A stretch of 64,000 nt of DNA from an uncultured Gemmatimonadales bacterium (GTDB taxonomy: Bacteria; Gemmatimonadota; Gemmatimonadetes; Longimicrobiales; RSA9): NCBI GenBank assembly GCA_963708135.1, contig OY970192.1, forward strand, positions 1,792,001-1,856,000. Direction: 5' to 3'. A program made the position numbers and the translations under genes. A model generated the notes under the pieces. It had not been told where the DNA came from. It did not search any database and saw only the letters and a program-made list of their open reading frames with translations. This document shows, piece after piece, positions 22,793 through 62,879 of the stretch (its first letter is position 1; each line of letters begins with the position of its first letter).

Positions 22793-22794
22793 AG

Positions 22795-22819
22795 TGGAGC
22801 CGGCGGGAGTCGAACCCGC
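22795..22819 (-). repeat. 25-bp duplicate of the tmRNA 3' end (att-like), copy 1
   Basis: tggagccggcgggagtcgaacccgc, identical to 62515-62539. Confidence 0.95.
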
Positions 22820-22888
22820 ACCAGATCCCCCACCCCCGGATCGCGATTCGCCAGTAACCGCAACAACTATGAGCGGTTTCGACCGTCG

Positions 22889-24760
22889 GGGTGTGGGCCG
22901 CCAGGTCCGGCGCTGACGGCCGGCGCGTTGTCCCGCTCCGCCATGGTGGTGCCCCGGGTCTCGTCGAACCCTTCGGGGCATGCCCACCGTCGCACGCCCC
23001 CGATCCGTTTGGGTCCCGCCGCAGGCACAGGCGCACCGCCCAGGGCACTCCGCAACGCCACCCGCCCAGGCCGCCGTTTACCGCCGACGACGGCCCACGG
23101 CCACGCCCCTCTACCCCATCGTCCAGCACCACATCGAGGGCTTCCTGGCCCGGGCCGCCGAAGCCGATCCCTGGGGCGAGGGCGTGGCCGGCTGGGTCGA
23201 GGCCGACTTCCGGGCCTACCTCCGCTGCGGCATCCTGGCCCACGGCTTCGCCCGCGTCCGCTGTGACGACTGCGCCGCCGAGCGCCTCGTCGCCTTCTCC
23301 TGCAAGGGCCGCGGCGTCTGCCCCTCCTGCAACGCCCGCCGGATGGTCGAGGTCGCCGCGCACCTGAACGACGCCGTCCTGCCGCCGCTCCCGATCCGCC
23401 AATGGGTCCTCTCCGTCCCGAAGCGGATCCGCCCCTTCTTCCACCACGATCCCGCCCTTGCCGGCGCCGTGCTCCGGATCCTGCTCCGGGCCGTCCGCAC
23501 CCGCCTGCGTCACGGCAGTCCCGGTGCCGGCCCGGACGCGCAGATCGGCGCCGTCTCCTTCCTCCACCGCTTCGGCTCCGCCCTCAATCCCCACTTCCAC
23601 TTCCACGTCGTGGTTCTCAATGGCGTCTTCACCGGGACCGTGGACGGCGAGGTCCGCTTCGATGAGGCGACCCACTTTTCCGCCGACGACGCCTCCGCCC
23701 TCACGCCCGTCCTCCAGCGCCGCATCCTGCGCCTCTTCCAACGCCGCGGCCTCCTCGAGGAGCACACGGTGAACGACATGCTCACCTGGCAGGGCACCGG
23801 CGGCTTCAGCCTCGACGCCTCCGTCCGCATCCACGGCGCCGACCGGGCCGGCCGCGAGCGCCTCCTCCGCTACTGCGCCCGGCCGCCGTTTGCCCTCGAT
23901 CGCCTGCGGATCGAGCGTCAGTCCGGAGGGCGGGCCGACGACGACGCGGGGGTCCGCCGCGTGTTCTACCGACCCTCCCGGCCCACCTCCGACGGACGCG
24001 CTCTCCTCGCCCTCTCACCCCTCCAGTTTCTGGAAGCACTTTCCCAGCTGATCCCGCCGCCCCGGGTTCACCGCCACCGCTACCACGGCGTTCTCGCCCC
24101 CAACGCACGGCTCCGGCCCCGGGTCGTCGCCCTCGAACGCGACGCAGAGGCCCACGCGGACGAAGCCCACGGCGAGGGGCCCGGGGTCCACACCCACAAC
24201 GAGCCCGCTACCACCCTCACCGGCGCCGCCGCCCGCTCCCGCTGGGCCCAGCTCCTCGCCCGCATCTACGAGGTCTTCCCCCTCCGCTGCCCCGAGTGCG
24301 GCTCGCAGATGCGCATCATCGCTTTCCTCACCGACCCCGCGCCCGTGGGCGCCATCCTCCGACATCTCGACCTGCCCCATACCACACCGCCGCTCTCCCC
24401 CGCACGCGCTCCACCCCAAGTCGCCTTCGACCTCGACGCCGATTCCGTGCGCGCGATGCCGAAACAGGATCCCGTGCCGGCGGAAGACTTCGACCAGACG
24501 CCCGGCTTGGACGCGGCCGACCCCGAGCCCGTACCCGAGCTCGACCTCGACCAGACCCGCGGAGTCTGAGGGGCGGAGCCACGCCTGACACCCGCCTGAC
24601 GCAGCAGTCTCCACTCCATCGCCTCGGTTCGGCTCGGTTCGGCTTGCTCTCCGGCCCTCAAACCCTCCCACCCGTCCATCACGAGCACCCTTGACGCCTC
24701 GATCCCCAACCACGCACCCTACCGAAACCGGCCGAAACGGCGTTTGGATTTCCTATCCCT
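22889..24760 (+). mobile_element. ISCR/IS91-like element, copy 1 (variant 3' end)
   Basis: Left boundary shared with copy 2; ends in oriIS-like ggcgtttggatttcctatccct; no terminal IRs or TSD. Confidence 0.9.
22980..24569 (+). CDS. ISCR-type HUH rolling-circle transposase
   Basis: Zn motif CDDC...FSCKGRGVCPSC, HUH motif PHFHFH, RLLRYCARP and C-terminal CPECG. Confidence 0.92.
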   Translation: MPTVARPRSVWVPPQAQAHRPGHSATPPAQAAVYRRRRPTATPLYPIVQHHIEGFLARAAEADPWGEGVAGWVEADFRAYLRCGILAHGFARVRCDDCAAERLVAFSCKGRGVCPSCNARRMVEVAAHLNDAVLPPLPIRQWVLSVPKRIRPFFHHDPALAGAVLRILLRAVRTRLRHGSPGAGPDAQIGAVSFLHRFGSALNPHFHFHVVVLNGVFTGTVDGEVRFDEATHFSADDASALTPVLQRRILRLFQRRGLLEEHTVNDMLTWQGTGGFSLDASVRIHGADRAGRERLLRYCARPPFALDRLRIERQSGGRADDDAGVRRVFYRPSRPTSDGRALLALSPLQFLEALSQLIPPPRVHRHRYHGVLAPNARLRPRVVALERDAEAHADEAHGEGPGVHTHNEPATTLTGAAARSRWAQLLARIYEVFPLRCPECGSQMRIIAFLTDPAPVGAILRHLDLPHTTPPLSPARAPPQVAFDLDADSVRAMPKQDPVPAEDFDQTPGLDAADPEPVPELDLDQTRGV

Positions 24761-24763
24761 CGC

Positions 24764-25381
24764 ATGACGCCGCACGAGCTGCATGCCGCGCTGGACGGCG
24801 GCGCCGTGCTGCTCGACCTGCGCACCCCGCGGCCGTTCGCCGCCGAGCACGTGCCCGGCGCCGTGAACCTCCAGTTCAACCGCGCCGACCTGGCCGAGCG
24901 CGCCGAGATGATGCTGCCCATGGACGTGCCGCTGGTCGTCCACGCCGAGCCCGAGCCGATCGCGAAGATCGCCGCGAAGCTGCTGGCCGACGCCGGCTAC
25001 GACGTGCGCGGCTGGCTCGACGGCGGACTCGTCGCCTGGAAAAATGCCGGCTTCGAGACCGCCACGACGCCCGTGCTCACCGTGGACGAGCTGGAGGGGA
25101 GGCTGGGCGAGGTGCAGGTCGTGGACGCGCGCGAGCCGTTCGAGTACCGCTACGGCCACATCCCCGGCGCCGTGCTGCTGCCCTACACGGATGCGTGGGG
25201 GAAGAGCGGCGCGCTGCCGGCGGGCAGGCCCCTCGCCGTGGTCTGTGGCGACGAGGTGCGCAGCGCCGCCCTCGCCTCGCTGCTCCAGCGCGACGGCCGC
25301 GACGTGCGCCTCGTCACCGGCGGCACGACCGACTGGCTGGCGCGGGGGTTCGCGGTGGTGAAGGGCGCGCCGCCAGCTTAG
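24764..25381 (+). CDS. Tandem rhodanese-like domain protein
   Basis: LDLR...HVPGAVN and DARE..EY..GHIPGA; starts 3 bp after the oriIS end. Confidence 0.9.
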   Translation: MTPHELHAALDGGAVLLDLRTPRPFAAEHVPGAVNLQFNRADLAERAEMMLPMDVPLVVHAEPEPIAKIAAKLLADAGYDVRGWLDGGLVAWKNAGFETATTPVLTVDELEGRLGEVQVVDAREPFEYRYGHIPGAVLLPYTDAWGKSGALPAGRPLAVVCGDEVRSAALASLLQRDGRDVRLVTGGTTDWLARGFAVVKGAPPA

Positions 25382-25457: not shown

Positions 25458-26779
25458 CAGTACTGTCCGGTTAAGCTGAGATGATGATGCCGTAACGGAT
25501 TGCTACATGGTGCGTTACGACGTTTTGGTTGCCGCACCGATTTGAACTTCGCTCCTGCGCCGCTATCCTGCCCGGACCCCCCGGCCGGAGTAGCGCATGA
25601 ATCCCGGAAGCACGGTTTTCTCACAGGTGATGGCCCACGCATCTCGCTTCGCGCTCGATCGGTGCATCCGCCGCTACCACGGCAACCGGAGGGTCCGACG
25701 TTTCTCGTGTCGGGACCAGTTCCTCGCCATGGCCTTTGCCCAGCTCACCTACCGGGAGAGCCTGCGGGACCTCGAGGCCACCCTCGGGGCGGCCCCCGAG
25801 AAGCTGTACCATCTTGGCTTCCGTTCGCCGCTCTCTCGCAGCACGCTCGCCGATGCGAACGAGAATCGCGACTGGCGCATCTACGCCGATTTCGCTCAAC
25901 GCCTGATCGCAGACGCGCGTCGGCTCTACGCCGACGACACGTTGGGGATCGAGCTCACGAACACCGTCTACGCGCTGGATTCCACCACGATCGACCTGTG
26001 TTTGTCGCTGTTCCCCTGGGCCTCGTTTCGTACGAGCAAAGGCGGCGTGAAGCTGCATACACTGCTCGACTTGGCAGGCAGGATCCCCGCCTACGCCTGG
26101 ATCACGGACGCGAGCACCCACGATGTGCGCATCCTCGATGCGCTTATCCCGGAGCCCGGATCGATCTACGTCCTGGACCGCGGCTACGTCAACTTCGCCC
26201 GGCTCTACCGACTCGATCAGCACCGGGCCACCTTCGTCGTTCGCGCCAAGGCAAACCTCAAGTTCAACCGGCTCTCCTCAGGACCCGTCGATCGCACCAC
26301 CGGCGTCTTCTGTGATCAGATCATCCGCCTTGCGCTGCCCCGGTCTGCCAGGGCCTATCCCGACCGGCTTCGCCGCGTGCGTTTCAAGGACGCAGGGTCC
26401 GGGCAGGACCTCGTCCTTCTGACCAACAACGTCGCGCTGCCCGCCGTTACCGTGGCCGAGCTCTACCGCCTGCGGTGGCAGATCGAGCTCTTCTTCAAAT
26501 GGATCAAGCAGCACCTCAGGATCAAGCGCTTCTTCGGCACGAGCGCGAACGCTGTGCGCACGCAGATCTGGATCGCGATCAGCGTTTACGTCCTCGTCGC
26601 GATCGTCCGCAAGCGGCTCCGGATCGAGCGCGAACTCTACACAATTCTACAGATCCTGAGCGTCTATGCGTTCGAGAAAGCCCCTCTCGCACAAGTACTT
26701 ACGCGTTCGGCCTACACCCCCGAAGTCCCCTCCGATCGTAACCAGTTGTCGCTCTTCAACTTGTGACCGGACACTACTG
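25458..26779 (+). mobile_element. IS4-family element
   Basis: Inverted ends cagtactgtccggt / accggacactactg; 9-bp TSD atcggctcc. Confidence 0.95.
25597..26766 (+). CDS. IS4-family transposase (DUF4372 + DDE)
   Basis: YALDSTTIDL, LDRGY and YRLRWQIELFFKWIKQHL motifs. Confidence 0.95.
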   Translation: MNPGSTVFSQVMAHASRFALDRCIRRYHGNRRVRRFSCRDQFLAMAFAQLTYRESLRDLEATLGAAPEKLYHLGFRSPLSRSTLADANENRDWRIYADFAQRLIADARRLYADDTLGIELTNTVYALDSTTIDLCLSLFPWASFRTSKGGVKLHTLLDLAGRIPAYAWITDASTHDVRILDALIPEPGSIYVLDRGYVNFARLYRLDQHRATFVVRAKANLKFNRLSSGPVDRTTGVFCDQIIRLALPRSARAYPDRLRRVRFKDAGSGQDLVLLTNNVALPAVTVAELYRLRWQIELFFKWIKQHLRIKRFFGTSANAVRTQIWIAISVYVLVAIVRKRLRIERELYTILQILSVYAFEKAPLAQVLTRSAYTPEVPSDRNQLSLFNL

Positions 26780-26893
26780 ATCGGCTCCGTATATTTTTTG
26801 TCATCCCGCTGCTGCGCAGGCGCCCCACAGTCGTTCTCTGCATGGTGTCCCGCAGTGTCCCCAATCAGCTACACGATACGTGGACACGCCGAC

Positions 26894-28468
26894 ATGCTCA
26901 CGAGACGTGCATTGCCGCTGACATTGGCCGTTGCTGGGCTTGCTGGTGCCGGCTGCCACATGGATTCGCCTACCTCGGCCGACGTGATACGCCCAGCCCG
27001 GACGGCCGTGGATCTCGATCCACTCACGGACGTGATCCCGGGCCAGTACATCGTGATGCTGAGCGACACGGTTTCGGACGCTGCCAGCCTCGCAAATCAC
27101 GCAGTCCAGTCTGCTGGTGGGCACCTGCGCTTCACGTACGACCACGTGTTCAAGGGATTTGCTGCAAAAGTTCCATTGGGCGCCGTCGAAGGCCTGAGGC
27201 ACTTCCCCGGGGTCGCCGGAGTCTACCCCGACCACTACGTGCACATGGCCAGCCTCGGTTGGCACCTGGACCGGATCGACCAGCGCGATCTCCCGCTCGA
27301 CGGCCAGTACCGCCTGAATCGCCGTACCGGCAAGAACGTGCACATCTACATCCTGGACAACGGCGTCCGGATCACGCACGACGAGTTCAAGGACTCGCTC
27401 GGCGGCTCACGGGCGTCGAACGGGGCCAGTTCGTGAGTGATAGCCTGTGGTTTTGGTGTAAGCGGAACCGGAAGGAGCGGCCACGGGACCCATGTTGCGG
27501 CCCTGGCGGCGGGCCGTACCTTCGGGGCGGCCCCAGGCGCAAGCATCGTCAACGTGCGTGTTCTGGACTGCAATACAAATCCAGAAGGGTCCGGGAGTGA
27601 GAGTACCGTCGTTAAGGGGATGGACTGGGTCGCCGCGAACAAAGTGCGCCCTGCCGTCGTAAATCTTAGTCTCAACATCGTTGAAGCTCCTCCCAACGAC
27701 ACGGCATTGACAAGATCCGTCAATGCATTGCTCGGAGCCAACATTACTACAGTCGTCGGGGCGGCCGGAAATGCCAAAGCCAATGCCTGCTACTGGTTCC
27801 CCGGATCCGAGACCGGCGTCATCACCGTCGGATTCACGACCCTGAGCGATTCGATCGGTTACTACTCGAATCAGGGAAGTTGCGTGGATCTCTTCGCCCC
27901 GGGAGCAGACATCGTCTCGGCGTGGGATACCGGAGACAACGCCACGCATACGCTGAGTGGCAGCTCACAGGCCGCCCCTCTGGTTGCCGGCGCCGCAGCC
28001 CTCTACTTGCAGGACCATCTCAGTGCGACGCCGTCGGAAGTAAAGAATGACCTGGTGGGCACGGCTACCAGCGGGCGGCTATCGGGAATCACCCTCCCCG
28101 GGACCCCGAATCTACTCCTGTACGCGCTACGGCCATCGCCGCTCTCGGTCTCGGTCACGGGACCAACCTACATCTCCGCGAAGGGCACCTATACCTTCAC
28201 CGTGAGCTATTCGGGCTACGTGTCGCCCACGATTGACTGGACGGAAAAGCCGTGCTATGCGGCCGGAGACGGCTTCTGCACGTGGCACGATCTCGGCGGC
28301 GGGACGACCCAGAACCGGGTCCTCGCCCCTGATTGCACGGTTGGATACGACCTCTACGAGATCCGCGCCACCGTAACCGATTCAGACGGGCTGTATGCCA
28401 GCGACACCCACGATGTGCATCTCTGCAACGCCCCCGCCCCGGTGCCCAGTTCGCCGGGAGAGGACTGA
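26894..28468 (+). pseudogene. S8 subtilisin-like lipoprotein peptidase with I9 propeptide, frameshift near 27430
   Basis: PGQYIV, YILDNG, GHGTHVA, AAGN and LSGSSQAAP split over two frames. Confidence 0.88.
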
Positions 28469-29160
28469 TGGGCGTCGCCTTGCAGTTCCTGGCCGCTCCC
28501 GCTCCGGCGAACCGCGGACGAACCGGGAAACCACGGCACCGGCGCTTTCTCGCCGCCTGTTCGGTCCTCATGTTTGCACTGCTCGCCGGGGCGGCGTGCG
28601 ACCACTCACCGACTCGCCCTGCCGAGGAGCCGGACCTGAAGCCGGGGAAGCTCATCTACCAGTGGTGTCCCATCGACCAGACGGACTTCTGGCCATACGG
28701 CAAGCCGGCGGCGCCGACGGTCATCGTGGATGCGTTGCCAAGCCCGGTCCTCGAGTCTGGCCCGAATGCCGCACCATATTACCCTCTATCAGCCGAGCAG
28801 GAGGCCCGGATCACGGCACACGGTGCACGGATCCTGTACCGGTTCAACGCCAATATGGTACGTATCGAGGTCCCCACGGATTCGTTGGCGGCCATGGTGA
28901 AGGCTCCGCCGCTCGTTCTCGACGGTGTGCTTTCCGTCCCCGACACGCTGCACCACGATTACGTTTCGGATTTGGTCTTTGACCACACGCTCACTAGTGA
29001 CGATTCGTTGCTGGTGTTGCGGCTGGGCGGCTGGCCAGAGCGTCACGAGGCGGGGGATAACGTCCTTCATGCAACCATTCCTGATTCCATCGTGCCGGAG
29101 CTACGCAATCACGGCCTGATCTACTCGCTCGTGGACTTCACAGGTTGCGGCGCAGTCTGA
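28468..29160 (+). CDS. Hypothetical lipoprotein, copy 1
   Basis: Lipobox-like LAGAAC; tgatg coupling to the peptidase; paralogue at 35125. Confidence 0.75.
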   Translation: MGVALQFLAAPAPANRGRTGKPRHRRFLAACSVLMFALLAGAACDHSPTRPAEEPDLKPGKLIYQWCPIDQTDFWPYGKPAAPTVIVDALPSPVLESGPNAAPYYPLSAEQEARITAHGARILYRFNANMVRIEVPTDSLAAMVKAPPLVLDGVLSVPDTLHHDYVSDLVFDHTLTSDDSLLVLRLGGWPERHEAGDNVLHATIPDSIVPELRNHGLIYSLVDFTGCGAV

Positions 29161-29184
29161 CCGGCTTTCAATACAGCAGTCGAG

Positions 29185-29420
29185 CCTCCCTCCTCGTCGG
29201 CGACGTCGGCCGCTCCGACCTGCTCCTTCGGCGACCAGGCGCTCGACGTGCCGCCCTCGCCTCGCTCCTCCAGCGCGATGGCCGCGACGTGCGGCTCGTC
29301 ACCGGCGGCATGACCGACTGGCTGGCCCGGGGGTTCGCGGTGGCAAAGGGAACCGCGGCAGCTCAGGCTGGCGGCCACCAGTCAACGCAAACGCGCCGCG
29401 GCTCAGTTGCCGGACCTTAG
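29185..29420 (+). pseudogene. MBL-fold hydrolase scrap fused to a rhodanese C-terminal fragment
   Basis: SLLVGDVGRSDLL followed by AALASLLQRDGRDVRLVTGGMTDW, paralogous to 25265-25370. Confidence 0.7.
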
Positions 29421-30286
29421 TGGTTGACAGATTGAGGCATTTTCGCTTGCACATTCCACCACCTCGCCGCTGCGCAGGCGCTTAAATCGGTCCCGCAGCG
29501 CCCCCGATCAGCTACACCATGATGGGACACGCCGACATGTTCACGCGAAGTGCGTTGCTGCTGACACTGGCCGTTGCTGGGCTTGCTGGTACCGGTTGCC
29601 ACATGGATTCGCCTACCTCGGCCGACGTGATACGCCCAGCCGGACGGCCGTGGATCTTGAACCACTGACGGATGTCATCCCGGGCCAGTACATTGTGATG
29701 TTGGCCGACACAGTTTCTGACGCTGCCAGCCTCGCAAACCACGCAGTCCAATCTGCTGGTGGGCACCTGCGTTTCACGTACGACCACGTGTTCAAGGGGT
29801 TTGCTGCAAGAATTCCGTTGGCCGCCGTCGAAGGCCTGAGGCACTTCCCCGGGGTCGCCGGAGTCTACCCCGACCACTACGTGCACATGGCCAGCCTCGG
29901 TTGGGACCTGGACCGGATCGACCAGCGTGATCTCCCGCTCGACGGCCAGTACCGCCTGAATCGCCGTACCGGCAAGAACGTGCACATCTACATCCTGGAC
30001 AACGGCGTCCGGATCACGCACGACGAGTTCAAGGACTCGCTCGGCGGCTCACGGGCGTCGAACGGCGCGAATCTCCTCTTGGGCGATCTGCCCAGCGACA
30101 GCCTCTGGTTTTGCAATGGCGTCAGCGACGACGGCCTGAGCGGGCACGGAACGCATGTCGCGGCCCTCGCGGCCGGCCGGACCTTCGGGGCCGCACCGGG
30201 TGCGCGAATTGTCAATGTGCGCGTGTTGAATTGCAACAATGACGTTGAAGGGGCCGGCGCGGAAAGCACGCTGTTGGCAGGGCTAG

Positions 30287-31920
30287 GAGCGTGTCCGAGT
30301 AAGCACGCGCGCGCGTGTGCGCACGCGGGGATGTACACGCCGCCTTCGGTGATGTAGTTTGGCGGCAGCCCTTTTCGAGGAGTCTGCCGCGTGGCGAAAA
30401 CGTTTCGTCCGTACGATCCGGATCAGCTTCTGGTGCTGCCACCCTCGCTTCGGGAGTGGCTGCCGCCCGAGCACCTGGTCTACTTCGTGAGCGACCTGGT
30501 GGACACCCTGGATCTCTCGCGGATCTACGACAGCTACGACGAGGAGCGGGGCTATCCGCCCTACCACCCGCTGCTGATGACGAAGCTCATCCTCTATGGG
30601 CAGGTGGTGGGCGTGCGCAGCTCGCGGAAGATGCAGCGGGCGTGCCTGGAAGACGTGGCGTTCCGGGTCGTGTGCGCCGGGGCGAGCCCGGACTTCCGTA
30701 CGGTCGCGGATTTCCGCAAGCGGCACCTCAAGGCGCTGGCGGACCTGTTCACGCAGGTGCTCCAGCTGTGCAAAGCGGCGGGGCTGGTCAAGCTGGGGCA
30801 CGTGGCGATCGACGGCACGAAGGTCAAGGGGAACGCGAGCAAGCACAAGGCGATGAGCTACTCGCGCATGGTGGAGGAGGAGAAGCGGCTGAGGGCTGAG
30901 GTGAACCGTCTGTTGGCGCAAGCCGCGGCGGAGGACGCGGAAGAGGACCGGCGCTACGGCAAGGACTCGGCCGGCGAGGAGCTTCCGGAAGAGCTGCGGC
31001 GCCGTGAGAGCCGGCTGAAGAAGATCCAGGAAGCGAAGGCGGCGCTGGAAGCCCAGGTCCGGGGCCAGGCCAAGGCGGCGGGCATGGAGAAGCCCGAGGA
31101 GGCGAAGCCGGAGGGCAAGGCGCAGCGCAACTTCACCGATCCGGAGAGCCGGATTATGCTGAACAGCGAGAAGACCTTCGTGCAGGGCTATAACGCCCAA
31201 CTCGCCGTGGACGCCGAGCACCAGATCGTCGTGGCCGAGGACGTGGTGCAGCAGAGCAACGATAAGAACTTGCTGGTGCCGATGGTGGAAGCCGTTTGTG
31301 ATACTGTAGGCGAGACGCCGGAGGCGGTGAGCGCGGACGCGGGCTACTGGACGGAGGCGGACATCGAGCGGCTCGAGTGGTACGAGATCGACGTCTACGT
31401 GGCGCCGGAGAAGGTGCGTCACCGCGAGTGGCGTGAGGGGCCGCGGAGCGAGGGGCCGCCGCCGGCGGACGCGAGCACGAAGGAGCGCATGCGGCACAAG
31501 CTGCGGACCGCCGAAGGCCGCGCGCAGTACGACCGCCGCAAGGTCACCGTCGAGCCGGTGTGCGGGCAGATGAAGGATGTGATCGGACTGAGGCACTTCC
31601 TCCTGCGCGGTCACGAGAACGTGCGCGGTGAATGGCGCCTCGGCTGCACCGCACACAACCTGCTCAAGCTCTTCCGGGCGTGCCGTGCGGGGGTGACCTC
31701 CATCGACGAGGTGCTCGCCGCGGCGAAAGCGGGGCTCCATGTGGTAGTGGCCCCCGCCTGAGCGCCCCGATCGGGCGTAATGCGCCCGGTACAGAGCCGG
31801 AGAGGCGCCGAACACGGGGCGTGGGACCCGGGCGCACATCGATTGGGGCCGTCCCGGTCCCCGCCTACCCCGGCCGCGACCGGCCCAGCGATGGTTCGCG
31901 GCCATTACGGAGACGGGCTC
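30287..31920 (+). mobile_element. IS1182-family element
   Basis: Imperfect inverted ends gagcgtgtccgagtaa / gagcccgtctccgtaa; CTAG TSD. Confidence 0.9.
30391..31761 (+). CDS. IS1182-family transposase
   Basis: PDFRTVADFRKRH, AIDGTK, GYNAQ, ADAGY and VEPV.GQMK motifs. Confidence 0.92.
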   Translation: MAKTFRPYDPDQLLVLPPSLREWLPPEHLVYFVSDLVDTLDLSRIYDSYDEERGYPPYHPLLMTKLILYGQVVGVRSSRKMQRACLEDVAFRVVCAGASPDFRTVADFRKRHLKALADLFTQVLQLCKAAGLVKLGHVAIDGTKVKGNASKHKAMSYSRMVEEEKRLRAEVNRLLAQAAAEDAEEDRRYGKDSAGEELPEELRRRESRLKKIQEAKAALEAQVRGQAKAAGMEKPEEAKPEGKAQRNFTDPESRIMLNSEKTFVQGYNAQLAVDAEHQIVVAEDVVQQSNDKNLLVPMVEAVCDTVGETPEAVSADAGYWTEADIERLEWYEIDVYVAPEKVRHREWREGPRSEGPPPADASTKERMRHKLRTAEGRAQYDRRKVTVEPVCGQMKDVIGLRHFLLRGHENVRGEWRLGCTAHNLLKLFRACRAGVTSIDEVLAAAKAGLHVVVAPA

Positions 31921-32688
31921 CTAGAATGGGTATCCAATAACGAGGTCCGCCCGGCAGTCGTTAATTTGAGCGTGAACGTGCGACCGGATACATCTTTGAC
32001 TCGATTATCTGGTCGGCGGCAATATCACCGTCGTGGGCGCCGCAGGAAACAACAAGGGAGCGGACGCCTGTAATTGGTTCCCGGGATCGGAGCCAAGCGT
32101 GATCACTGTCGGATTCACGAACTCGAGCGATGTCGTCGATTCGAATTCGAATCAGGGAAGTTGCGTGGATCTCTTCGCCCCGGGAGCAGACATCGTCTCG
32201 GCGTGGGATACCGGAGACAACGCCACGCATACGCTGAGTGGCAGCTCACAGGCCGCCCCTCTGGTTGCCGGCGCCGCAGCCCTCTACTTGCAGGACCATC
32301 TCAGTGCGACGCCGTCGGAAGTAAAGAATGACCTGGTGGGCACGGCTACCAGCGGGCGGCTATCGGGAATCACCCTCCCCGGGACCCCGAATCTACTCCT
32401 GTACGCGCTACGGCCATCGCCGCTCTCGGTCTCGGTCACGGGACCAACCTACATCTCCGCGAAGGGCACCTATACCTTCACCGTGAGCTATTCGGGCTAC
32501 GTGTCGCCCACGATTGACTGGACGGAAAAGCCGTGCTATGCGGCCGGAGACGGCTTCTGCACGTGGCACGATCTCGGCGGCGGGACGACCCAGTGTCAAG
32601 GCCGGTTGAGAAGTTGACAGGTCCAACGGTTTAGAATTGGACACTTCCGTCGGTCTTGGCGCTAACGCGGCATGGGGGATCTCCTCTC

Positions 32689-33459
32689 TCAGTGGGTGGT
32701 GGTGAGGCCGGCGCCGCGGCGGTTGCGGAGACGATAGCTCTCGCCGCGGATGTTGATGGTGGTGGCGTGGTGCAGCAGCCGGTCCAGGAGCGCGGTGGCG
32801 AGGACCGGATCCGGAAAGATCTCGTCCCACTGCCCGTAGCTCTTGTTGCTGGTGAGGAGGATCGACTTGTTGGCCTCGTAGCGGCGGCTTACGGCCTCGA
32901 AGAGGAAGGTGGCGTCCTCGCTCTCGAGCGGGAGGTATCCCACCTCGTCGAGCAGGAAGAGATCGGCGCGGATGATGACGCGCAGGAGGATGTCGAGGCG
33001 GTTCTTCTCGCGCGCCACGCGGGAGCGGGTCACCAGCTCGTGGAGGCTGAGGAAGTAGGCGCGGTGCCCGCGCTCGATCGCCCGGATCGCGAGGGCCACG
33101 GCCAGGTGGCTCTTGCCGACCCCGCAGGGCCCGAGGAACACGACGTTCTCGCCCTGATGGAGAAAGCGCAGCGTGGCGAGCTCCCGGATGACCTCCTTCG
33201 GCACGGAGGGCTGGGCGTCGAAGTCGAAGCTCTCCAGGGTCTTGGGTGCCGGAATGCCGCTGAGCTTCAGGTTGGTGCTGACGCGGCGCTCGAAGCGGGT
33301 GGCGAGCTCGCGGCCGAGCAGCTCATCGAGCACTTCAACCGGGAGCTGCTCCTGCTTCTGCCCCTGCTCGAGGACGCTGTCCAGGGAGGCAAGCGCGGAC
33401 TCGAGCTTCAGGCGCCCGAGCTGGTCCCGCACCCGCTCATAGCTCACGGCCGCACTCAC
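32689..33459 (-). CDS. istB: IS21 helper ATPase
   Basis: GPCGVGKSH, LLDEVGY and LLDRLLHH motifs. Confidence 0.95.
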   Translation of the reverse strand: MSAAVSYERVRDQLGRLKLESALASLDSVLEQGQKQEQLPVEVLDELLGRELATRFERRVSTNLKLSGIPAPKTLESFDFDAQPSVPKEVIRELATLRFLHQGENVVFLGPCGVGKSHLAVALAIRAIERGHRAYFLSLHELVTRSRVAREKNRLDILLRVIIRADLFLLDEVGYLPLESEDATFLFEAVSRRYEANKSILLTSNKSYGQWDEIFPDPVLATALLDRLLHHATTINIRGESYRLRNRRGAGLTTTH

Positions 33460-34772
33460 GCCGCACCGTCCCCGAGGAGGCGCTCATACGCCGAGAGCGG
33501 CTGCACCTGGACCTGCGGAGCCGAGCGCTGGATCCGCTCCAGCAAGAGAATGCCTCCGCCTTGGCCCACCTGTACGTAGCTTGGCTGATGGCCTCGGCGG
33601 CGAGCGGCCGCTTCGGCGCTGCCGCGCGTGAGGCGTCGGATCTGCGCCGCGTGTTCGGGCAGGGTCACGCGGGGCGAGCCGCTGGGCCTTCTCCGATGGC
33701 ACGCGACCAGGTGCGCACCGAAGTAGACCGAGAAGGCGTCTCCCACCGCGCCCCCTTCCGAGCGGACCACCACCGTGCCACCCACCGCGATGGGATCCAC
33801 GCTGTAGCGCACCCCGCCGTAGCTGATGTGGCTGTCGGAGGGGACCGTACGGAGCTCCACCGGGCGCACGTCGTAGGCCGGCACGGCTGCGAGTGGCCGC
33901 AGGTGCGCGAGCTCGAGCGCATGGCGGTCGATCGGCCGCTGCCCGGTGGTGCCGTGGATCCGCACGTTGGCCACCGTGTCCAGCCAGACCGCAAGCTGCC
34001 GGTTCAGGTCCTCGAGGTCGGTGAAGGTGCGGCCCTCCAGGAACGAGGTCTTGAGGTAGCCCACGCCCCGCTCGACCTTCCCCTTCACCCGTGGCCAGTA
34101 CGGTGGGCTCGCCACCGGAAGGAAGCCGTGGTGCTCGGCGAAATCCAGGAAGCCCTTGTTCCAGCGCACCGTGCCGGTGGTGACGTCGTGCTGCTCGACC
34201 GCCTGCTTCATGTTGTTGACCAGGATCTCCTTCGGGATGCCGAGCGCATCGAAGGCACGAACGAGACAGGCCAGCAGCACCGGCAGCTTCGAGCTGGTCG
34301 TGAAGCGCGCGTACATCATCCGGCTGTAGCCCAGCACCATGACGAAGACGTAGAGCGTCCGGCGCTCGCCGCCCACCTCGATGCTGCCGCACTCCCCCCA
34401 GTCGATCTGGGCCTGCTGCCCCGGCAGCGTCTCGAAGCGCTCCGTCACCCGCCGCACGAACTCCTGCTTCAGCGGGCGCACGAACTCCCGCAGCAGCGTC
34501 AGTCCGCCACGATAGCCCTGCGCCCGGATCTCCTGGACGAGCACCGTGGCCGGCAGATCGAAGCACTCCAGCCGCGCCCGGATGTGCTCCTTGAACGGCT
34601 CCAGCTTCGAGACCCGTTTCGATCGCGGTTTCGGAAACGGCTCTCCCTCCTTTCGCTTCAGGTGGTTGTAGACGGTCTGGCGGCTGACGCCCAGCCGCTC
34701 GGCAATCCGACTCTTCTGCATGCCCTCGCGGGCCAGGAACTTGATCTGCATGGACCTCTCCCGTAGGATCAC
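33456..34772 (-). CDS. istA: IS21 transposase
   Basis: N-terminal HTH, FETLPGQQAQIDWG and KGKVER. The second catalytic Asp appears as Asn (LVNNMK). Confidence 0.92.
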   Translation of the reverse strand: MILRERSMQIKFLAREGMQKSRIAERLGVSRQTVYNHLKRKEGEPFPKPRSKRVSKLEPFKEHIRARLECFDLPATVLVQEIRAQGYRGGLTLLREFVRPLKQEFVRRVTERFETLPGQQAQIDWGECGSIEVGGERRTLYVFVMVLGYSRMMYARFTTSSKLPVLLACLVRAFDALGIPKEILVNNMKQAVEQHDVTTGTVRWNKGFLDFAEHHGFLPVASPPYWPRVKGKVERGVGYLKTSFLEGRTFTDLEDLNRQLAVWLDTVANVRIHGTTGQRPIDRHALELAHLRPLAAVPAYDVRPVELRTVPSDSHISYGGVRYSVDPIAVGGTVVVRSEGGAVGDAFSVYFGAHLVACHRRRPSGSPRVTLPEHAAQIRRLTRGSAEAAARRRGHQPSYVQVGQGGGILLLERIQRSAPQVQVQPLSAYERLLGDGAA

Positions 34773-35124
34773 TGGCGGAGCCCTCCGGTGCTCGGGAACG
34801 TCTTTAAGCTGACGCCCCGATTCTACGCACTGCGAGGGCTTCGTTCATCTCCCTGTCAACGTGGCCTCCCGCGCCTGCGGCGCTTCGGCCCTCGACTTCA
34901 CCTCCTCGACGGGAGTGTCCATTTTCAAACCGTCGCTCCTGTCCAGTTTACAACCGGTGGTGAGACCAGAACCGGGTCCTCGCCCCTGATTGCACGGTTG
35001 GATACGACCTCTACGAGATCCGCGCCACCGTAACCGATTCAGACGGGCTGTATGCCAGCGACACCCACGATGTGCATCTCTGCAACGCCCCCGCCCCGGT
35101 GCCCAGTTCGCCGGGAGAGGACTG

Positions 35125-36368: not shown

Positions 36369-36377
36369 CTAAGCGCC

Positions 36378-52745: not shown

Positions 52746-53033
52746 CAATATGGGCCGAACGACCTCGGTCGGAACAGGGCGTTCCTCCTTGCTTCGCTCG
52801 CCCCAGGCCGCGTCGCGTCAAATGCTGTGACCGGTACGGCGAGATCGTCACCGGGATCCTGACGGCCGCGCACGGTACCGCATGAGGAGGCAAGGATCAT
52901 TCGACCGGGAATCCGATGGCGGCGGTTCGGCTCGATCGCCAGGGCGCGCGCGCGGCTGCCCGCCGCAGCGCGATCTTGCACTGCGGTAATCACCATGGTA
53001 ATATGACCATGGACACCATTCGAGAGCTTTATT

Positions 53034-53345
53034 ATGGCGAAGAAGAAGATCTCGGAAGCAGCCGTGGCGCCCTTCGCGCCAACCGGGGCGCCGCACACCG
53101 TGCAGGCCAGCACGTTCAAGGCGACGTGTCTCGAATTGATGGACGAAATCGAAGCGAGCGGATTCGAGGTCGTCGTCACCAAGCACGGCCGCCCCGTGGT
53201 GAAGGTGGGACCGGTGGAGCCGAGCGTCCCTTCTCCGTTGGGGTTTCTGCGCGGGACCGTCGTGGATGAGGGAGACTTGGTGAGCCCCGACCACGACGCA
53301 TGGAGCGAGGCGGTGGCGGACCCGCTCCACACGGATCGGAAGTAG
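53034..53345 (+). CDS. Phd/YefM-family antitoxin
   Basis: ASTFKATCLELMDE...VVVTKHGRPVVK. Confidence 0.88.
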   Translation: MAKKKISEAAVAPFAPTGAPHTVQASTFKATCLELMDEIEASGFEVVVTKHGRPVVKVGPVEPSVPSPLGFLRGTVVDEGDLVSPDHDAWSEAVADPLHTDRK

Positions 53346-53776
53346 TGGCGACCGTGCGCGCGGTGCGCGAGCGGCCCCAGCGCCGGCCGCGGCGCGCGCG
53401 CGCACCAAAGCGCGTGGCGGGTTCGGTGCTCTGGCGCGCGGTGGAGGAACCGGAGCGCGAAGACGCCCTGCTCCTGGACACGCACGTGTGGCTGTGGACG
53501 CTCGCCGGCACCACGGAGCGACTGGCCGCGCAGGCGGTCGCGCTCGTGCAGTCAGCCGCGGCCGCCGGCCGCCTCTACGTGAGCGACATTTCCTTCTGGG
53601 AGGTGTCGCTCAAGGCATCGAAACGGAAGCTGACGCTGGTGATCGATCCCACCCTCTGGCTCGAGCGCGCCGCGCGGGCACCGGGCATTCGCGCGCTGCC
53701 GCTCGCGCGCGAGGTGCTGATCCAGAGCACGCGCCTTCCGGGCGCTATGCACGGCGATCCCGCCGACCGCATGCTC
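53345..53776 (+). pseudogene. vapC: VapC/PIN toxin, 3'-truncated
   Basis: LLDTHVWLW, SDISFWE and HGDPADRML, then an abrupt junction; the final 'LVT.D' motif is missing. Confidence 0.82.
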
Positions 53777-53860
53777 TGCAGTGGACATTGCGCGCGGAGG
53801 ATAAGGTAGGCGCCACCTACAGGCTCACGGACACGAATCCCGTCCGCAGACATTAGCGAA

Positions 53861-53905: not shown

Positions 53906-54811
53906 CAGTACTGTCCGGTTAAGCTGAGATGATGATGCCGTAACGGATTGCTACGTGGTGCGTTACGACGTTTTGGTTGCCGCACCGATTTGAACTTCGC
54001 TGCTGCGCCGCTATCCTGCCCGGACCCCCCGGCCGGAGTGGCGCATGAATCCCGGAAGCACGGTTTTCTCACAGGTGATGGCCCACGCATCTCGCTTCGC
54101 GCTCGATCGGTGCATCCGCCGCTACCACGGCAACCGGAGGGTCCGACGTTTCTCGTGTCGGGACCAGTTCCTCGCCATGGCCTTTGCCCAGCTCACCTAC
54201 CGGGAGAGCCTGCGGGACCTCGAGGCCACCCTCGGGGCGGCCCCCGAGAAGCTGTACCATCTTGGCTTCCGTTCGCCGCTCTCTCGCAGCACGCTCGCCG
54301 ATGCGAACGAGAATCGCGACTGGCGCATCTACGCCGATTTCGCTCAACGCCTGATCGCAGACGCGCGTCGGCTCTACGCCGACGACACGTTGGGGATCGA
54401 GCTCACGAACACCGTCTACGCGCTGGATTCCACCACGATCGACCTGTGTTTGGACCAACGACGTCGCGCTGCCCGCCGTTACCGTGGCCGAGCTCTACCG
54501 CCTGCGGTGGCAGATCGAGCTCTTCTTCAAATGGATCAAGCAGCACCTCAGGATCAAGCGCTTCTTCGGCACGAGCGCGAACGCTTTGCGCACGCAGATC
54601 TGGATCGCGATCAGCGTTTACGTCCTCGTCGCGATCGTCCGCAAGCGGCTCCGGATCGAGCGCGAACTCTACACAATTCTACAGATCCTGAGCGTCTATG
54701 CGTTCGAGAAAGCCCCTCTCGCACAAGTACTTACGCGTTCGGCCTACACCCCCGAAGTCCCCTCCGATCGTAACCAGTTGTCGCGCTTCAACTTATAACC
54801 GGACACTACTG
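53906..54811 (+). mobile_element. IS4 element, copy 2, with an internal deletion of about 416 bp
   Basis: Same ends as 25458-26779; 9-bp TSD aaatatttt; deletion junction near 54451. Confidence 0.95.
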
Positions 54812-54826
54812 AAATATTTTCTAAAT

Positions 54827-55507
54827 TTACTTTTCTTCCTCGCCTTTTTCTTTCTTTTCTTTCTTCTCTTCCTTTTCTTCGCCTTCCTCGCCTTCGGCTT
54901 CCTCTTTGCCTTCCTTCTTCACGCCCTCAACGGCTTCTTCGAGATCTACCTCGGTCGGCTGGGCCAATTCTGCTTCGAGCTCTTCTTCGGACTTCGGCGG
55001 CTGGACGGCGGCGACGGTCATCTCCGGATCATCCACCAGAATCTCCACCTTACTGTGGTCCACCGGCAAATCCTTGACGCGGATGGCGTCCTCGAAATTT
55101 TTCAAAGCCGAAATATCCACGACAATCTCCGAAGGCAGGTCGCCCGGCAAGCTCTCGACTTCGACTTCATAAAGAGTCGGCACGAAAGTGCCCTGCAGTT
55201 CTTTGACCGCCGGAGATTCGCCGACGAATTCGATCGGCACGGTGGCCGTCAGTTTTTCCGCCATATTCACCTGGTAAAAATCCACGTGCGTAATCTGGCC
55301 TCGGGTGATGTGCTTCTGAATGTCTTGGATCAAGACCTTGACCGGCTCGGTCTCCCCCACTTGCAGGCCGACGATAGTGCTCTCGCCGGCGTCACGATAG
55401 ATTTTTTCAAAATCACCCGCCGGCACGGACAAGGAACGCGCCTCGATCCCGTGCCCGTACAGAACCCCGGGGATATAGCCGGCGTGGCGAAGTCCTTTCG
55501 CTTTTTC
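54827..55507 (-). pseudogene. rplY: 50S ribosomal protein L25 (Ctc-type), 5'-truncated, foreign composition
   Basis: GYIPGVLYG, HVDFYQV, VPIEFVGESPAVK, LPGDLP and an acidic/Lys tail; no start codon. Confidence 0.9.
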
Positions 55508-55854
55508 TGGGCGCGCGCCGGCGGACCTGGCAGCGCCTCGGCGGACCCTCGCGCGTGCAGCACCGCCGAGCGGCCCTTGGTGGCGCCGGGCGGCCTCCTC
55601 AGTCCTGCGGCGCCATCGGCAGCTCGCGCACGTGCCGGCCCGTGAGCGCGAACCAGGCGTTGGTGAGCGCCGGGGCGGCGGGTGGGAGGCCCGGCTCGCC
55701 GACCCCCCCCGGGTCCTCGCGGCTGTCCACGATGTGCACGTCGATCTCGGGCGCCTCCAGTGGAGCCGGCGGGAGTCGAACCCGCACCAGATCCCCCACC
55801 CCCGGATCGCGATTCGCCAGTAACCGCAACAACTATGAGCGGTTTCGACCGTCG
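55508..55854 (+). repeat. Third copy of the IorB-fragment / tmRNA-end segment (matches 22542-22888)
   Basis: Near-identical sequence; contains the 25-bp tmRNA end at 55761-55785. Confidence 0.95.
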
Positions 55855-57707
55855 GGGTGTGGGCCGCCAGGTCCGGCGCTGACGGCCGGCGCGTTGTCCC
55901 GCTCCGCCATGGTGGTGCCCCGGGTCTCGTCGAACCCTTCGGGGCATGCCCACCGTCGCACGCCCCCGATCCGTTTGGGTCCCGCCGCAGGCACAGGCGC
56001 ACCGCCCAGGGCACTCCGCAACGCCACCCGCCCAGGCCGCCGTTTACCGCCGACGACGGCCCACGGCCACGCCCCTCTACCCCATCGTCCAGCACCACAT
56101 CGAGGGCTTCCTGGCCCGGGCCGCCGAAGCCGATCCCTGGGGCGAGGGCGTGGCCGGCTGGGTCGAGGCCGACTTCCGGGCCTACCTCCGCTGCGGCATC
56201 CTGGCCCACGGCTTCGCCCGCGTCCGCTGTGACGACTGCGCCGCCGAGCGCCTCGTCGCCTTCTCCTGCAAGGGCCGCGGCGTCTGCCCCTCCTGCAACG
56301 CCCGCCGGATGGTCGAGGTCGCCGCGCACCTGAACGACGCCGTCCTGCCGCCGCTCCCGATCCGCCAATGGGTCCTCTCCGTCCCGAAGCGGATCCGCCC
56401 CTTCTTCCACCACGATCCCGCCCTTGCCGGCGCCGTGCTCCGGATCCTGCTCCGGGCCGTCCGCACCCGCCTGCGTCACGGCAGTCCCGGTGCCGGCCCG
56501 GACGCGCAGATCGGCGCCGTCTCCTTCCTCCACCGCTTCGGCTCCGCCCTCAATCCCCACTTCCACTTCCACGTCGTGGTTCTCGATGGCGTCTTCACCG
56601 GGACCGTGGACGGCGAGGTCCGCTTCGATGAGGCGACCCACTTTTCCGCCGACGACGCCTCCGCCCTCACGCCCGTCCTCCAGCGCCGCATCCTGCGCCT
56701 CTTCCAACGCCGCGGCCTCCTCGAGGAGCACACGGTGAACGACATGCTCACCTGGCAGGGCACCGGCGGCTTCAGCCTCGACGCCTCCGTCCGCATCCAC
56801 GGCGCCGACCGGGCCGGCCGCGAGCGGCTCCTCCGCTACTGCGCCCGGCCGCCGTTTGCCCTCGATCGCCTGCGGATCGAGCGTCAGTCCGGAGGGCGGG
56901 CCGACGACGACGCGGGGGTCCGCCGCGTGTTCTACCGACCCTCCCGGCCCACCTCCGACGGACGCGCCCTCCTCGCCCTCTCACCCCTCGAGTTTCTGGA
57001 AGCACTTTCCCGACTGATCCCGCCGCCCCGGGTTCACCGCCACCGCTACCACGGCGTTCTCGCCCCCAACGCACGGCTCCGGCCCCACGTCGTCGCCCTC
57101 CAACGCGACGCAGAGGCCCACGCGGACGAAGCCCACGGCGAGGGGCCCGGGGTCCACACCTACAACGAGCCCGCTACCACCCTCACCGGCGCCGCCGCCC
57201 GCTCCCGCTGGGCCCAGCTCCTCGCCCGCATCTACGAGGTCTTCCCCCTCCGCTGCCCCGAGTGCGGCTCGCAGATGCGCATCATCGCTTTCCTCACCGA
57301 CCCCGCGCCCGTGGGCGCCATCCTCCGACATCTCGACCTGCCCCACACCACACCGCCGCTCTCCCCCGCACGCGCTCCACCCCAAGCCGCACTCGCGCTC
57401 GACGCCGAGCCCCTCGCACCCGCCGATGCCCTGCCCCGCGACGACTTCGACCAGACGCCCGCGTTCGATCCGGCTGACCCCGAGCCCCTACCCGAGCTCG
57501 ACCTCGACCAGACCCGCGGCGCCTGAACGGCCAGGTGCGCCCGGCAACCGCTACAGGCGCCAGGTCACACCCACATCCGATGCCGAATCGACCGGAACCT
57601 CCACCCAATCCCGCTCGCCCGCCCATCACCCCCACCCTTGACCCGGCGAAACCACCCCGCCTATCCTACCGAAAGCAGCCGAAACGGCGTTTGGATTTCC
57701 TATCCCT
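55855..57707 (+). mobile_element. ISCR element, copy 5
   Basis: Near-identical to the other copies; oriIS ends at 57707. Confidence 0.92.
55946..57526 (+). CDS. ISCR-type HUH transposase
   Basis: Same motifs as copy 1. Confidence 0.92.
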   Translation: MPTVARPRSVWVPPQAQAHRPGHSATPPAQAAVYRRRRPTATPLYPIVQHHIEGFLARAAEADPWGEGVAGWVEADFRAYLRCGILAHGFARVRCDDCAAERLVAFSCKGRGVCPSCNARRMVEVAAHLNDAVLPPLPIRQWVLSVPKRIRPFFHHDPALAGAVLRILLRAVRTRLRHGSPGAGPDAQIGAVSFLHRFGSALNPHFHFHVVVLDGVFTGTVDGEVRFDEATHFSADDASALTPVLQRRILRLFQRRGLLEEHTVNDMLTWQGTGGFSLDASVRIHGADRAGRERLLRYCARPPFALDRLRIERQSGGRADDDAGVRRVFYRPSRPTSDGRALLALSPLEFLEALSRLIPPPRVHRHRYHGVLAPNARLRPHVVALQRDAEAHADEAHGEGPGVHTYNEPATTLTGAAARSRWAQLLARIYEVFPLRCPECGSQMRIIAFLTDPAPVGAILRHLDLPHTTPPLSPARAPPQAALALDAEPLAPADALPRDDFDQTPAFDPADPEPLPELDLDQTRGA

Positions 57708-58069
57708 CCGGCTTCCTCCACATCGGGGCGTGGCAATCATCCGTTCACGCGAAGCCGCAAAGCGCCGAAGGCAGTACACCGGTGTGTTGGGAACCTGCGT
57801 ACCGACGGCCCGTCCTGTGGCATGGATCCCAGCCATACCCGCCGAGTTCGGTTTTCTAGGTTGCGGGATTCGCGCCTTCGGCCCGTGCTGCCTTCGCGTG
57901 AACCGAGTGGAAGGACGCCCCCGAAGCCCGCGGTTGGCCGAGGGATGTCGCTCCGCCTCCTCCGCCACTCCGCGCGAACCGCGGATGTGTGAAGCGGGAC
58001 GAAGCGGGAACATGGATGCGTGCGCCGCACGGTTGCATCCTTGGCGGGACCCACTTCCGGAGAATCTTC

Positions 58070-62203: not shown

Positions 62204-62469
62204 GATGTCCTCGGGGCAGGGCTGGATCGCGCACGGCCGTAAAGCCGAGTACGAAGAGGTCCGGGCGTGTGCCGTCCGGGTCCTTAGCAATTTCGCGCTA
62301 CCGGCTTCGCACCGTCAACGGTTCAGTGGATGGAAGGCCCGCCGACAAGGCCATGGCATGCCGCTCCCCGGAGCCTGCGGCACCACCGTCCCCGCCACAC
62401 GGCCGTCCTCGAGGATCCGGACGCAGAACCCACAAGACGGGGACGCGGGTGAGACGGAGTCGAGCGCCG

Positions 62470-62509
62470 GAAAACGAACGCGCCCGGCGATCCGAAGATC
62501 ACCGGGCGC
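62470..62509 (-). terminator. Terminator downstream of ssrA
   Basis: On the minus strand: gcgcccggtgatc-ttcg-gatcgccgggcgc followed by gttcgtttt. Confidence 0.75.
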
Positions 62510-62514
62510 TTCAA

Positions 62515-62879
62515 TGGAGCCGGCGGGAGTCGAACCCGCGTCCGCGAATCGATCCCTCAGTGCATCTACGTGCGTAGTCCACCGTTCTCAGTTTCTCGCT
62601 CCCTCATCGGCCGGTGGACGGCCCCGTCGGGAACCAGCCTCGCTGTGTCTCATCCGGCCGCGGCAAGGCGGCACGACCGGACCAGCCCGATTTGTCGATG
62701 CCTCTGGTCACGCCTCGGGCCCGGCCCGTCCAGAGACAGGTTGCGAAAGGTCAGACCTTACGCAGCCAGCGCCATGTTTGAGTTGGCACTTGTGATGTTT
62801 TCCCGCTGGTTTTACGAGGGCACGGGTCCTCGGCACGCGACACCGACTTCACGAAACACGTCGAAACCAGGTCGGCCCC
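62515..62879 (-). ncRNA. ssrA: tmRNA
   Basis: 5' GGGGCCGACCTGGTTTCGAC, 3' GGTTCGACTCCCGCCGGCTCCA, about 365 nt; tag ORF ANSNMALAA* at 62758-62787. Confidence 0.97.

Follow-up and report, generated by a model that had tools for sequence, protein, structure and literature searches.

The window considered here comprises 64,000 nucleotides of contig OY970192.1, from the genome of an uncultured Gemmatimonadales bacterium, and has a G+C content of 68%. It contains the transfer-messenger RNA (tmRNA) gene ssrA together with three exact copies of the 3' end of this gene displaced to other sites, each of which is followed at a short distance by an insertion sequence (IS) of the IS91 family. We consider it likely that the three displaced tmRNA ends all go back to one captured fragment, which this rolling-circle IS carried along as a passenger and copied, and that they are relics and not the attachment (att) sites of a genomic island. 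As an instance of an IS91-family element picking up passenger DNA the locus is ordinary, but it is unusually well preserved. With nested passengers, an apparently clean insertion and a junction of the oriIS (transposition origin) end with a passenger all found within 40 kb, it provides an unusually legible record of one-ended rolling-circle transposition, a mechanism that has mostly been inferred in clinical ISCR elements.

A single tmRNA gene is present in the window, on which ARAGORN and Rfam agree. The gene, the sites associated with it and the copies of its 3' end, named A to C after the IS copy that follows each, are located as follows:

62512/62515-62879, minus strand: ssrA, found by ARAGORN and by Rfam RF00023 (166 bits), with the tag peptide ANSNMALAA
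62480-62509, minus strand: intrinsic terminator of ssrA, a 13-bp stem followed by a T-rich tail, five bases past the ssrA 3' end
62890-62918: promoter-like site at ssrA
62515-62539: native 25-mer inside ssrA, exact match
22795-22819, plus strand: displaced tmRNA 3' end, copy A, exact match (T-arm, acceptor 3' strand and discriminator)
44104-44128, plus strand: displaced tmRNA 3' end, copy B, exact match
55761-55785, plus strand: displaced tmRNA 3' end, copy C, exact match

The shared 25-mer, TGGAGCCGGCGGGAGTCGAACCCGC, occurs four times in the window, every time exactly and on the plus strand, and no extra copy with up to 3 mismatches was found there. On the tmRNA strand it consists of the T-stem (5), T-loop (7), T-stem (5), acceptor 3' strand (7) and the discriminator A, and it runs from the first base of the T-arm to the last encoded base of the tmRNA (CCA is not encoded). 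The block from the T-arm to the 3' terminus is reportedly, according to the surveys of Williams (J Bacteriol 2003), the classical identity block of integrases targeting the T-loop of tRNA-type genes. When the sequence was shuffled 100 times with dinucleotides preserved, the 25-mer found no match in any shuffle. An initial annotation of the stretch, made from its letters, had placed exact ssrA 3' ends at 22795, 44104 and 55761 in direct orientation to the gene, at distances of about 6.7, 18 and 40 kb; both statements were borne out, the distances being 6.75, 18.4 and 39.7 kb. Downstream of ssrA are found its own terminator and then two genes of host-like composition, one PMT_2-like and one for a GH2 protein; a weak PMT_2 match was the sole Pfam result for the region 60.4-62.5 kb.

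Self-comparison and alignments place the displaced 25-mers within a larger repeat of 2.2-2.4 kb. Left of the 25-mer this repeat extends over 253 bp in copy C, starting at 55508, and over 402 bp in copies A and B, starting at 22393 and 43703. The parts of this repeat other than the IS are:

22820-22888, 44129-44197 and 55786-55854, plus strand: 69-bp spacer to the right of the 25-mer, the copies being 100% identical
22633-22794, 43942-44103 and 55599-55760, minus strand: fragment of an oxidoreductase gene, the last 53 codons and stop, cut exactly at the 25-mer
21389-22534, plus strand: methyltransferase open reading frame (ORF) left of copy A, with a TPMT-type domain (profile positions 5-192 of 218) in its last ~190 codons; the gene looks whole

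Outward from the IS the passenger is layered, with the 69 bp and the tmRNA end followed by the oxidoreductase fragment, an intergenic stretch and the 3' end of the methyltransferase gene. Copy B contains the last 142 bp of the methyltransferase gene alone (43703-43844) and copy C none of it. The passengers of A and B differ at 1 position in 496 bp, and those of A and C at 0 in 347 bp.

The 69-bp spacer holds an inverted repeat, AACCGC-11 nt-GCGGTT, confirming the earlier description of about 70 bp with an aaccgc...gcggtt repeat, and then the IS, after each tmRNA end. It has no match in the plasmid or phage collections, nor elsewhere in the window, and may be an arm of a lost ssrA-integrating element. 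Phage and plasmid searches with the 25-mer plus spacer and with the passenger returned solely matches to oxidoreductase genes and three matches of 24-25/25 in phage records; all plasmid matches of the passenger lie left of the spacer, within the oxidoreductase fragment. This fragment derives from a molybdopterin-binding aldehyde dehydrogenase or IorB-like large subunit and aligns with residues 710-761 of 771 of 8gy3_C (E 1.2e-7). Its DNA matches genes on plasmids whose annotations read molybdopterin cofactor-binding or xanthine dehydrogenase family, and its short database homologues are named isoquinoline 1-oxidoreductase beta subunit. The gene has been cut at about codon 718 of about 771, so that some 93% of it is gone. 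The placement of this fragment beside the tmRNA end is a secondary junction and no natural downstream region of ssrA.

According to passages of PMC13181058, members of the IS91 family transpose from oriIS, downstream of the transposase gene tnpA, to terIS, upstream of it. The rate at which termination at terIS fails is given there as 1-14%, or about half of events with TnpA expressed on its own, and after such a failure the DNA beyond is co-mobilised; insertion is said to leave no target duplication (PMC13181058, same passages). In the window, the element to the right of each spacer encodes a protein of 526-529 amino acids in which Pfam recognises Zn_Tnp_IS91 and Y2_Tnp. Both families were matched in the four full copies, PF04986 at an E of about 1e-23 and PF14319 at one of about 1e-17, and PF04986 alone in the partial copy. 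Five copies of the IS (A-E) are present, against three in the initial annotation, and three of the five have the tmRNA piece, in addition to a degenerate sixth relic of an oriIS end:

22889-24760, plus strand: IS copy A, with tnpA at 22980-24569 (529 amino acids)
44198-46050, plus strand: IS copy B, with tnpA at 44289-45869; the unit including its passenger begins at 43703/43712
55855-57707, plus strand: IS copy C, 1,853 bp, with tnpA at 55946-57526
55508-57707, plus strand: unit C, complete, 2,200 bp, made up of a 347-bp passenger (from the equivalent of 22542 onward: oxidoreductase fragment, 25-mer, 69 bp) and the 1,853-bp IS
36492-38344, plus strand: IS copy D, full-length, 1,853 bp, without the tmRNA piece and without the 69 bp
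39766-41032, plus strand: IS copy E, partial, its oriIS end intact, 242 bp being duplicated internally
18215-18288, plus strand: degenerate oriIS relic, terminal motif 19/22, about 75 bp alignable, 4.6 kb upstream of copy A

The right (oriIS) end of the element reads ...GGCGTTTGGATTTCCTATCCCT and is reached at 24760, 38344, 41032, 46050 and 57707. Its 22-bp terminal motif is exact in all five copies, and the flanks diverge immediately beyond it. The motif resembles one located 170 bp past the ISPps1 transposase gene on pADP-1; the left ends of the two elements are too distant for alignment. On the left, the repeat ends at different points in different copies. In the coordinates of copy A, the left ends of D, C and B are nested at 22889, 22542 and 22393, respectively, and A itself runs on into the whole-looking methyltransferase gene. 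Because the oriIS end is constant while the left ends vary and are nested, the copies point to one-ended rolling-circle transposition. The anatomy, boundaries, insertion sites and identities given here can be read directly from the window.

At the left end of copy D is an imperfect subterminal palindrome with a 9-bp stem, ending 7 nt from the terminus. This end looks like a terIS and would fit published descriptions of that site. The canonical element, as represented by copy D, is about 1,853 bp long, with the terIS-like palindrome at the left, the gene for the HUH/Y2 transposase, and the oriIS end at the right. Folding of the left and right ends gave z-scores from -2.2 to +0.5, suggestive for the 69-bp region alone. 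On the strand predicted to be cleaved, the bases beside oriIS are TGCG (A), CGTC (B), CCGG (C) and TCGA (D), none being a GTTC/CTTG-like tetranucleotide. Set against B, C and D, copy A is a mosaic, with about 7 differences over its first 2 kb and 115 over the last ~370 bp (24390-24760), and the C-terminus of its transposase is three codons longer than in those copies. This distribution indicates that the right end of A was acquired by recombination with a divergent variant of the IS, not represented elsewhere in the window.

The degenerate relic at 18215-18288 is fused to a fragment of an IS256-type element (Transposase_mut) at 17709-18290. The 4.6 kb between the relic and copy A contain an ORF with a PPK2 domain, the methyltransferase gene, the oxidoreductase fragment and the tmRNA piece. 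This segment may be an older oriIS-passenger-IS unit.

Two sites in the window allow the junctions of the units to be read, and they involve the following features:

54830-55507, minus strand: gene for an L25/Ctc ribosomal protein (Pfam Ribosomal_L25p and TL5_C), without its first ~11 codons
41042-43704, plus strand: IS21-family element with istA at 41263-42834, istB at 42904-43581 and matching inverted ends

The L25 reading frame starts at profile position 11, and alignments with L25 structures in the PDB begin at chain residues 11-13 in those chains that align from the first residue of the fragment. Just past the right end of unit C, 57708-57740 on the minus strand holds an ATG and ten codons in frame with L25. 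The flanks of unit C are contiguous in frame, with no target duplication, and the chance of an open frame plus an ATG at the right distance is estimated at about 3%. Unit C appears to be a simple clean insertion into the L25 gene, as judged from these flanks. The interrupted gene (54830-55507 plus 57708-57740) has a lower G+C content than its surroundings and a product with a long tail rich in Glu and Lys, and may be a paralogue that was acquired and not the housekeeping copy.

The second site lies between copies E and B, where the IS21 element splits the junction of the E oriIS end with the B passenger and is itself bounded by a 7-bp target duplication, CGATCCG (41035-41041 and 43705-43711). 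When the IS21 element is removed in silico, the oriIS end of E abuts sequence identical to that of A from position 22393 (68/68 bases compared). This head-to-tail E|B junction is the expected product of a circular intermediate, and equally of a unit inserted where a resident oriIS has been nicked. The left flank of copy D (36175-36491) contains the C-terminal fragment of a gene for a DUF819 membrane protein (profile positions 316-377 of 379), truncated towards the IS in the same manner as the oxidoreductase fragment. The missing part of the DUF819 gene was not found beyond the right end of D.

The transposase shares 33-34% identity with the ISCR1 and ISVsa3 (ISCR2) families over 84-85% of its length, about 40% with other IS91-family transposases and 49% with its best plasmid match. 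Relatives at 75-84% identity are found on metagenome contigs and in one 4.46-Mb genome. As such, the element is, on the basis of its predicted protein, a new member of the IS91 family from a lineage far from the clinical ISCRs. The label ISCR, used in the initial annotation, was right as to superfamily though loose. A cluster formed at 90% contains five distinct transposase sequences from the source contig (5,445,952 bp), as many as there are copies in the window, although identical duplicates elsewhere would not show in such a count. A scan of genome contigs for the transposase yielded one locus, an internal IS fragment (89% nucleotide identity over 545 bp) on a 2.8-kb contig of a metagenome-assembled genome, without the tmRNA piece. 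When the protein of the ORF spanning the junction (P0121) was used as the query, a single near-full-length match was obtained, P0122 (73 amino acids), with the other 95 matches covering the oxidoreductase part alone. P0122 is encoded on a 54,116-bp contig of another assembly, which also carries three copies of the transposase. Among the titles listed by literature searches for IS91 with tmRNA and for ISCR with ssrA there was no report of an IS91 or ISCR element carrying a tmRNA end, which is no proof of absence; none of those listed for ISCR with ssrA dealt with ISCR elements, several being on the IscR regulator.

From this anatomy we infer an order of events, an origin for the 25-mer and the 69 bp, and cutting by the transposase. 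Transposition would start at oriIS and run leftward through the element, and a failed stop at terIS would carry the left-hand DNA along. Initially, a copy of the IS would have been situated 69 bp from a duplicate of the tmRNA 3' end, which most likely was attR or attP in an ssrA-integrating element that has since been lost, and read-through would have produced a unit ending at the tmRNA 3' terminus. That unit would then have landed in the molybdenum oxidoreductase gene next to the methyltransferase gene, and further read-through from this location could have generated unit C, with a passenger of 347 bp, and unit B, with one of 496 bp. C would have entered the L25 gene, and B would have been placed head-to-tail behind E, either via the nick at the resident oriIS or by recombination of a circular intermediate. 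At a later time, the IS21 element would have split the E|B junction, homologous recombination would have given copy A its foreign right end, and E would have been rearranged. The IS-ridden 35 kb beside ssrA may be the remains of the lost ssrA-integrating element. Any deletion between the 25-mers would most simply be attributed to RecA acting on the 2.2-kb repeats.

Several observations weigh against descent of the tmRNA ends as passengers in this manner. The first unit would end on exactly the final tmRNA base, and if the point at which read-through stops is random, this is a striking coincidence. The four termini (bottom strand ...CACCC, ...GCCCA, ...CTCCA and ...TCGTG) and the bases adjacent to oriIS are unlike the GTTC, CTTG and CTCG of the IS91 members that have been studied, and the canonical left end is defined by copy D alone. 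An inverted repeat at 22826-22837/22885-22895 spans the D-type boundary (5/200 shuffles fold as well), and therefore the 69 bp could belong to the element. P0122 differs at 4/12 codons in the 69-bp part and at 0/62 in the part made up of the 25-mer and oxidoreductase fragment, a pattern which is not explained by simple passive descent. Because the missing halves of the genes interrupted at A and D were not found beyond the right ends of the IS, these two copies are not demonstrably simple insertions. Finally, the activity of the transposase is a prediction, and the DNA-level scan of other genomes gave one fragmentary locus.

Some of the same observations would be accounted for if the 69 bp, and perhaps the 25-mer too, were the true left end of the IS lineage, with D being a 5'-truncated copy and the element either having entered a tmRNA gene or att site or using the T-arm hairpin as its terminator. 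In favour of this are the inverted repeat that spans the D-type boundary and the coincidence of the unit end with the exact tmRNA terminus. The geometry is parallel too, the T-arm hairpin (stem of 5 bp, loop of 7 nt) being 8 nt away from its terminus and the D-type hairpin 7 nt away from its own, although hairpins near a terminus are common in DNA of 68% G+C. Divergence of the 69-bp part in P0122, with the flanks unchanged, is as expected from recombination with other IS variants. However, copy D has a good subterminal palindrome of its own at the same distance to the ATG, the 69 bp have no counterpart in the collections searched or in the rest of the window, and the 25-mer is identical to the host ssrA at 25/25 bases, which points to recent capture over an old feature of the IS. 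We regard this explanation as unlikely. It is no more than an idea that a tRNA-like T-arm might serve as a surrogate terIS for an HUH transposase, which would explain a stop at exactly the tmRNA terminus.

The initial annotation had taken the three copies as attL/attR of islands at ssrA, and had proposed that an ISCR captured an att site, that an integrase acting in trans could integrate ISCR circles at ssrA, and that nested segments of 6.7, 18 and 40 kb could be excised. The exact block from T-arm to discriminator, in direct orientation with ssrA and with its copies clustered within 40 kb of that gene, is what such sites would look like, and islands and prophages of tmRNA genes likewise have a direct repeat of the ssrA 3' end from T-arm to 3' terminus. 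In the window such a repeat is present at 25/25 bases, three times and on the same strand, but an integrase beside the tmRNA gene is lacking, as are repeats that act as junctions with an ssrA flanked by an island. Because all three copies share identical DNA on both sides, no copy is an island/chromosome junction. The boundaries of the mobile units are found elsewhere, at 55508 and 57707 for C and, for B, at the equivalent of 22393 abutting an oriIS end; none is at the 25-mer. Unlike in tmRNA-gene islands, the outer flank is a truncated gene, and ssrA is followed by its native-looking terminator and not by the oxidoreductase fragment that an integrated unit would have left. Similarity between the ssrA downstream region and the left flank of the copies is at chance level, 4.8% of 5,000 random 31-mers scoring as well.

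The window was also searched for integrases with Pfam, using 58 + 96 + 96 = 250 ORFs, which comprise all those of at least 70 amino acids outside confirmed genes plus the main ORFs of the window. Phage_integrase (PF00589), Resolvase (PF00239) and Recombinase (PF07508) were matched in none of these, in keeping with the earlier observation that no tyrosine or serine integrase is recognisable. The sole match to an 'integrase core' (rve), at 33456-34772, belongs to an IS21 transposase. Functional att sites at the 25-mers are very unlikely in our estimation: neither the assignment as attL/attR nor the nested segments as integrase substrates found support. What stands of the captured att site is that a tmRNA 3' end with the shape of an att identity block is carried by the IS. 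As history, the capture of an att site is plausible. Anatomically the 25-mer is like an att core, whereas att function through an integrase acting in trans, with nested excision, is unsupported by the sequence available.

Two further arrangements of islands were considered and rejected. Identical internal junctions would indeed be produced by a tandem array of one island type, but then ssrA itself would adjoin the oxidoreductase-side flank and the outermost copy some other, chromosomal DNA, and neither is seen. Integration at a secondary site in the oxidoreductase gene would, with a crossover in the T-loop, leave bases of the target and not of the tmRNA in the 3' half of the 25-mer. Automated island finders that rely on repeats of tRNA or tmRNA 3' ends would miscall 'islands' of 7-40 kb at this locus.

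The closest parallel to an att function, and one that makes an integrase acting in trans conceivable, is GIsul2 with the ISCR2-related CR2-sul2 unit. In this island attLR, the third of the att sites, is situated 119 bp upstream of rcr2, and the island integrase excises and integrates CR2-sul2 in recA-deficient cells (PMC9376610). The likeness consists in an att-like sequence shortly upstream of an IS91-type transposase gene (160 bp upstream of tnpA in the window) and in direct orientation with the chromosomal att, as far as the same passages describe the island (PMC9376610). In GIsul2 an integrase, three att sites and excision products were shown experimentally, with boundaries at the att cores (PMC9376610, passages cited); at the present locus, in contrast, the boundaries are off the 25-mer and nothing is integrated at ssrA. 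By analogy, the 25-mer and 69-bp arm might form an attP-like site that a tyrosine integrase specific for tmRNA genes, with its gene at another place in the 5.4-Mb genome or on an incoming element, recombines with ssrA. We regard this as very unlikely. If true, an IS91-family element would gain a second, site-specific route, delivering or excising up to 40 kb at the tmRNA gene, and the GIsul2/CR2-sul2 principle would be extended to tRNA-type sites and to a distant lineage, linking two mobility systems.

Also very unlikely is a plain segmental duplication of the 2.2-kb block by unequal homologous recombination or replication slippage, with the passenger not transposed: the region is indeed repeat-rich and recombining (the mosaic right end of A and the tandem IS duplication at 46891-50450), but every copy ends precisely at the oriIS terminal motif, C appears to be a clean insertion within the L25 gene, and the E|B junction sets oriIS exactly against passenger.

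Capture by one-ended transposition, which we favour, also agrees in several respects with known members of the family. As in the one-ended transposition of IS91, IS801 and IS1294/IS1294b, an HUH/Y2 transposase with a zinc-binding N-terminal domain is combined with distinct oriIS and terIS-like ends, the oriIS end is constant, the far end is variable with adjacent DNA, and no target duplication is found at C, the sole readable site. Unlike in these elements, the end tetranucleotides are not GTTC, CTTG or CTCG, the protein is about 40% identical to the named plasmid transposases, the host DNA is a chromosome of 68% G+C, and the passenger is non-coding debris and not a resistance or virulence gene. 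With ISCR1 and ISCR2 (ISVsa3) the element shares the superfamily, TTCCTAT in an oriIS-type right end, capture on the terIS side and a head-to-tail IS-passenger-IS arrangement. It differs from them in its transposase (33-34% identity over 84-85% of length), in the terIS-like palindrome of copy D and in the lack of an integron or resistance context. ISCRs were reportedly described by Toleman et al. 2006 as having no clear terIS.

Several other elements and genes are found in the window. Two tandem element copies at 46891-48660 and 48681-50450 are 99.8% identical, lie 20 bp apart and encode a 509-amino acid DDE_Tnp_1_4 transposase. An IS4-like element (25458-26780), with an ORF at 25597-26766 for a 389-amino acid protein with DUF4372 and DDE_Tnp_1 domains, recurs at 53906-54812 in a form that lacks about 415 bp internally. 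A subtilase gene (Inhibitor_I9 and Peptidase_S8) is present as fragments and partial duplicates at 26660-32617 and 34966-35838, in which 27785-28312 corresponds to 32066-32593, 26847-27423 to 29490-30065, and 28309-29173 to 34966-35838. An IS whose transposase is of the DUF772/DDE type (30391-31761) interrupts these fragments, which adjoin a second IS21-type pair (32689-34772). Two type II toxin-antitoxin pairs were identified, BrnT with a CopG-type antitoxin at 8036-8567 (minus strand) and Phd/YefM with a PIN domain protein at 53007-53806 (plus strand). The left part of the window, at 1194-5500 and 14677-17262, harbors three genes for Ser/Thr protein kinases, two of which contain TPR repeats or PD40 domains, and a gene for a Uma2-family endonuclease is located at 9014-9625.

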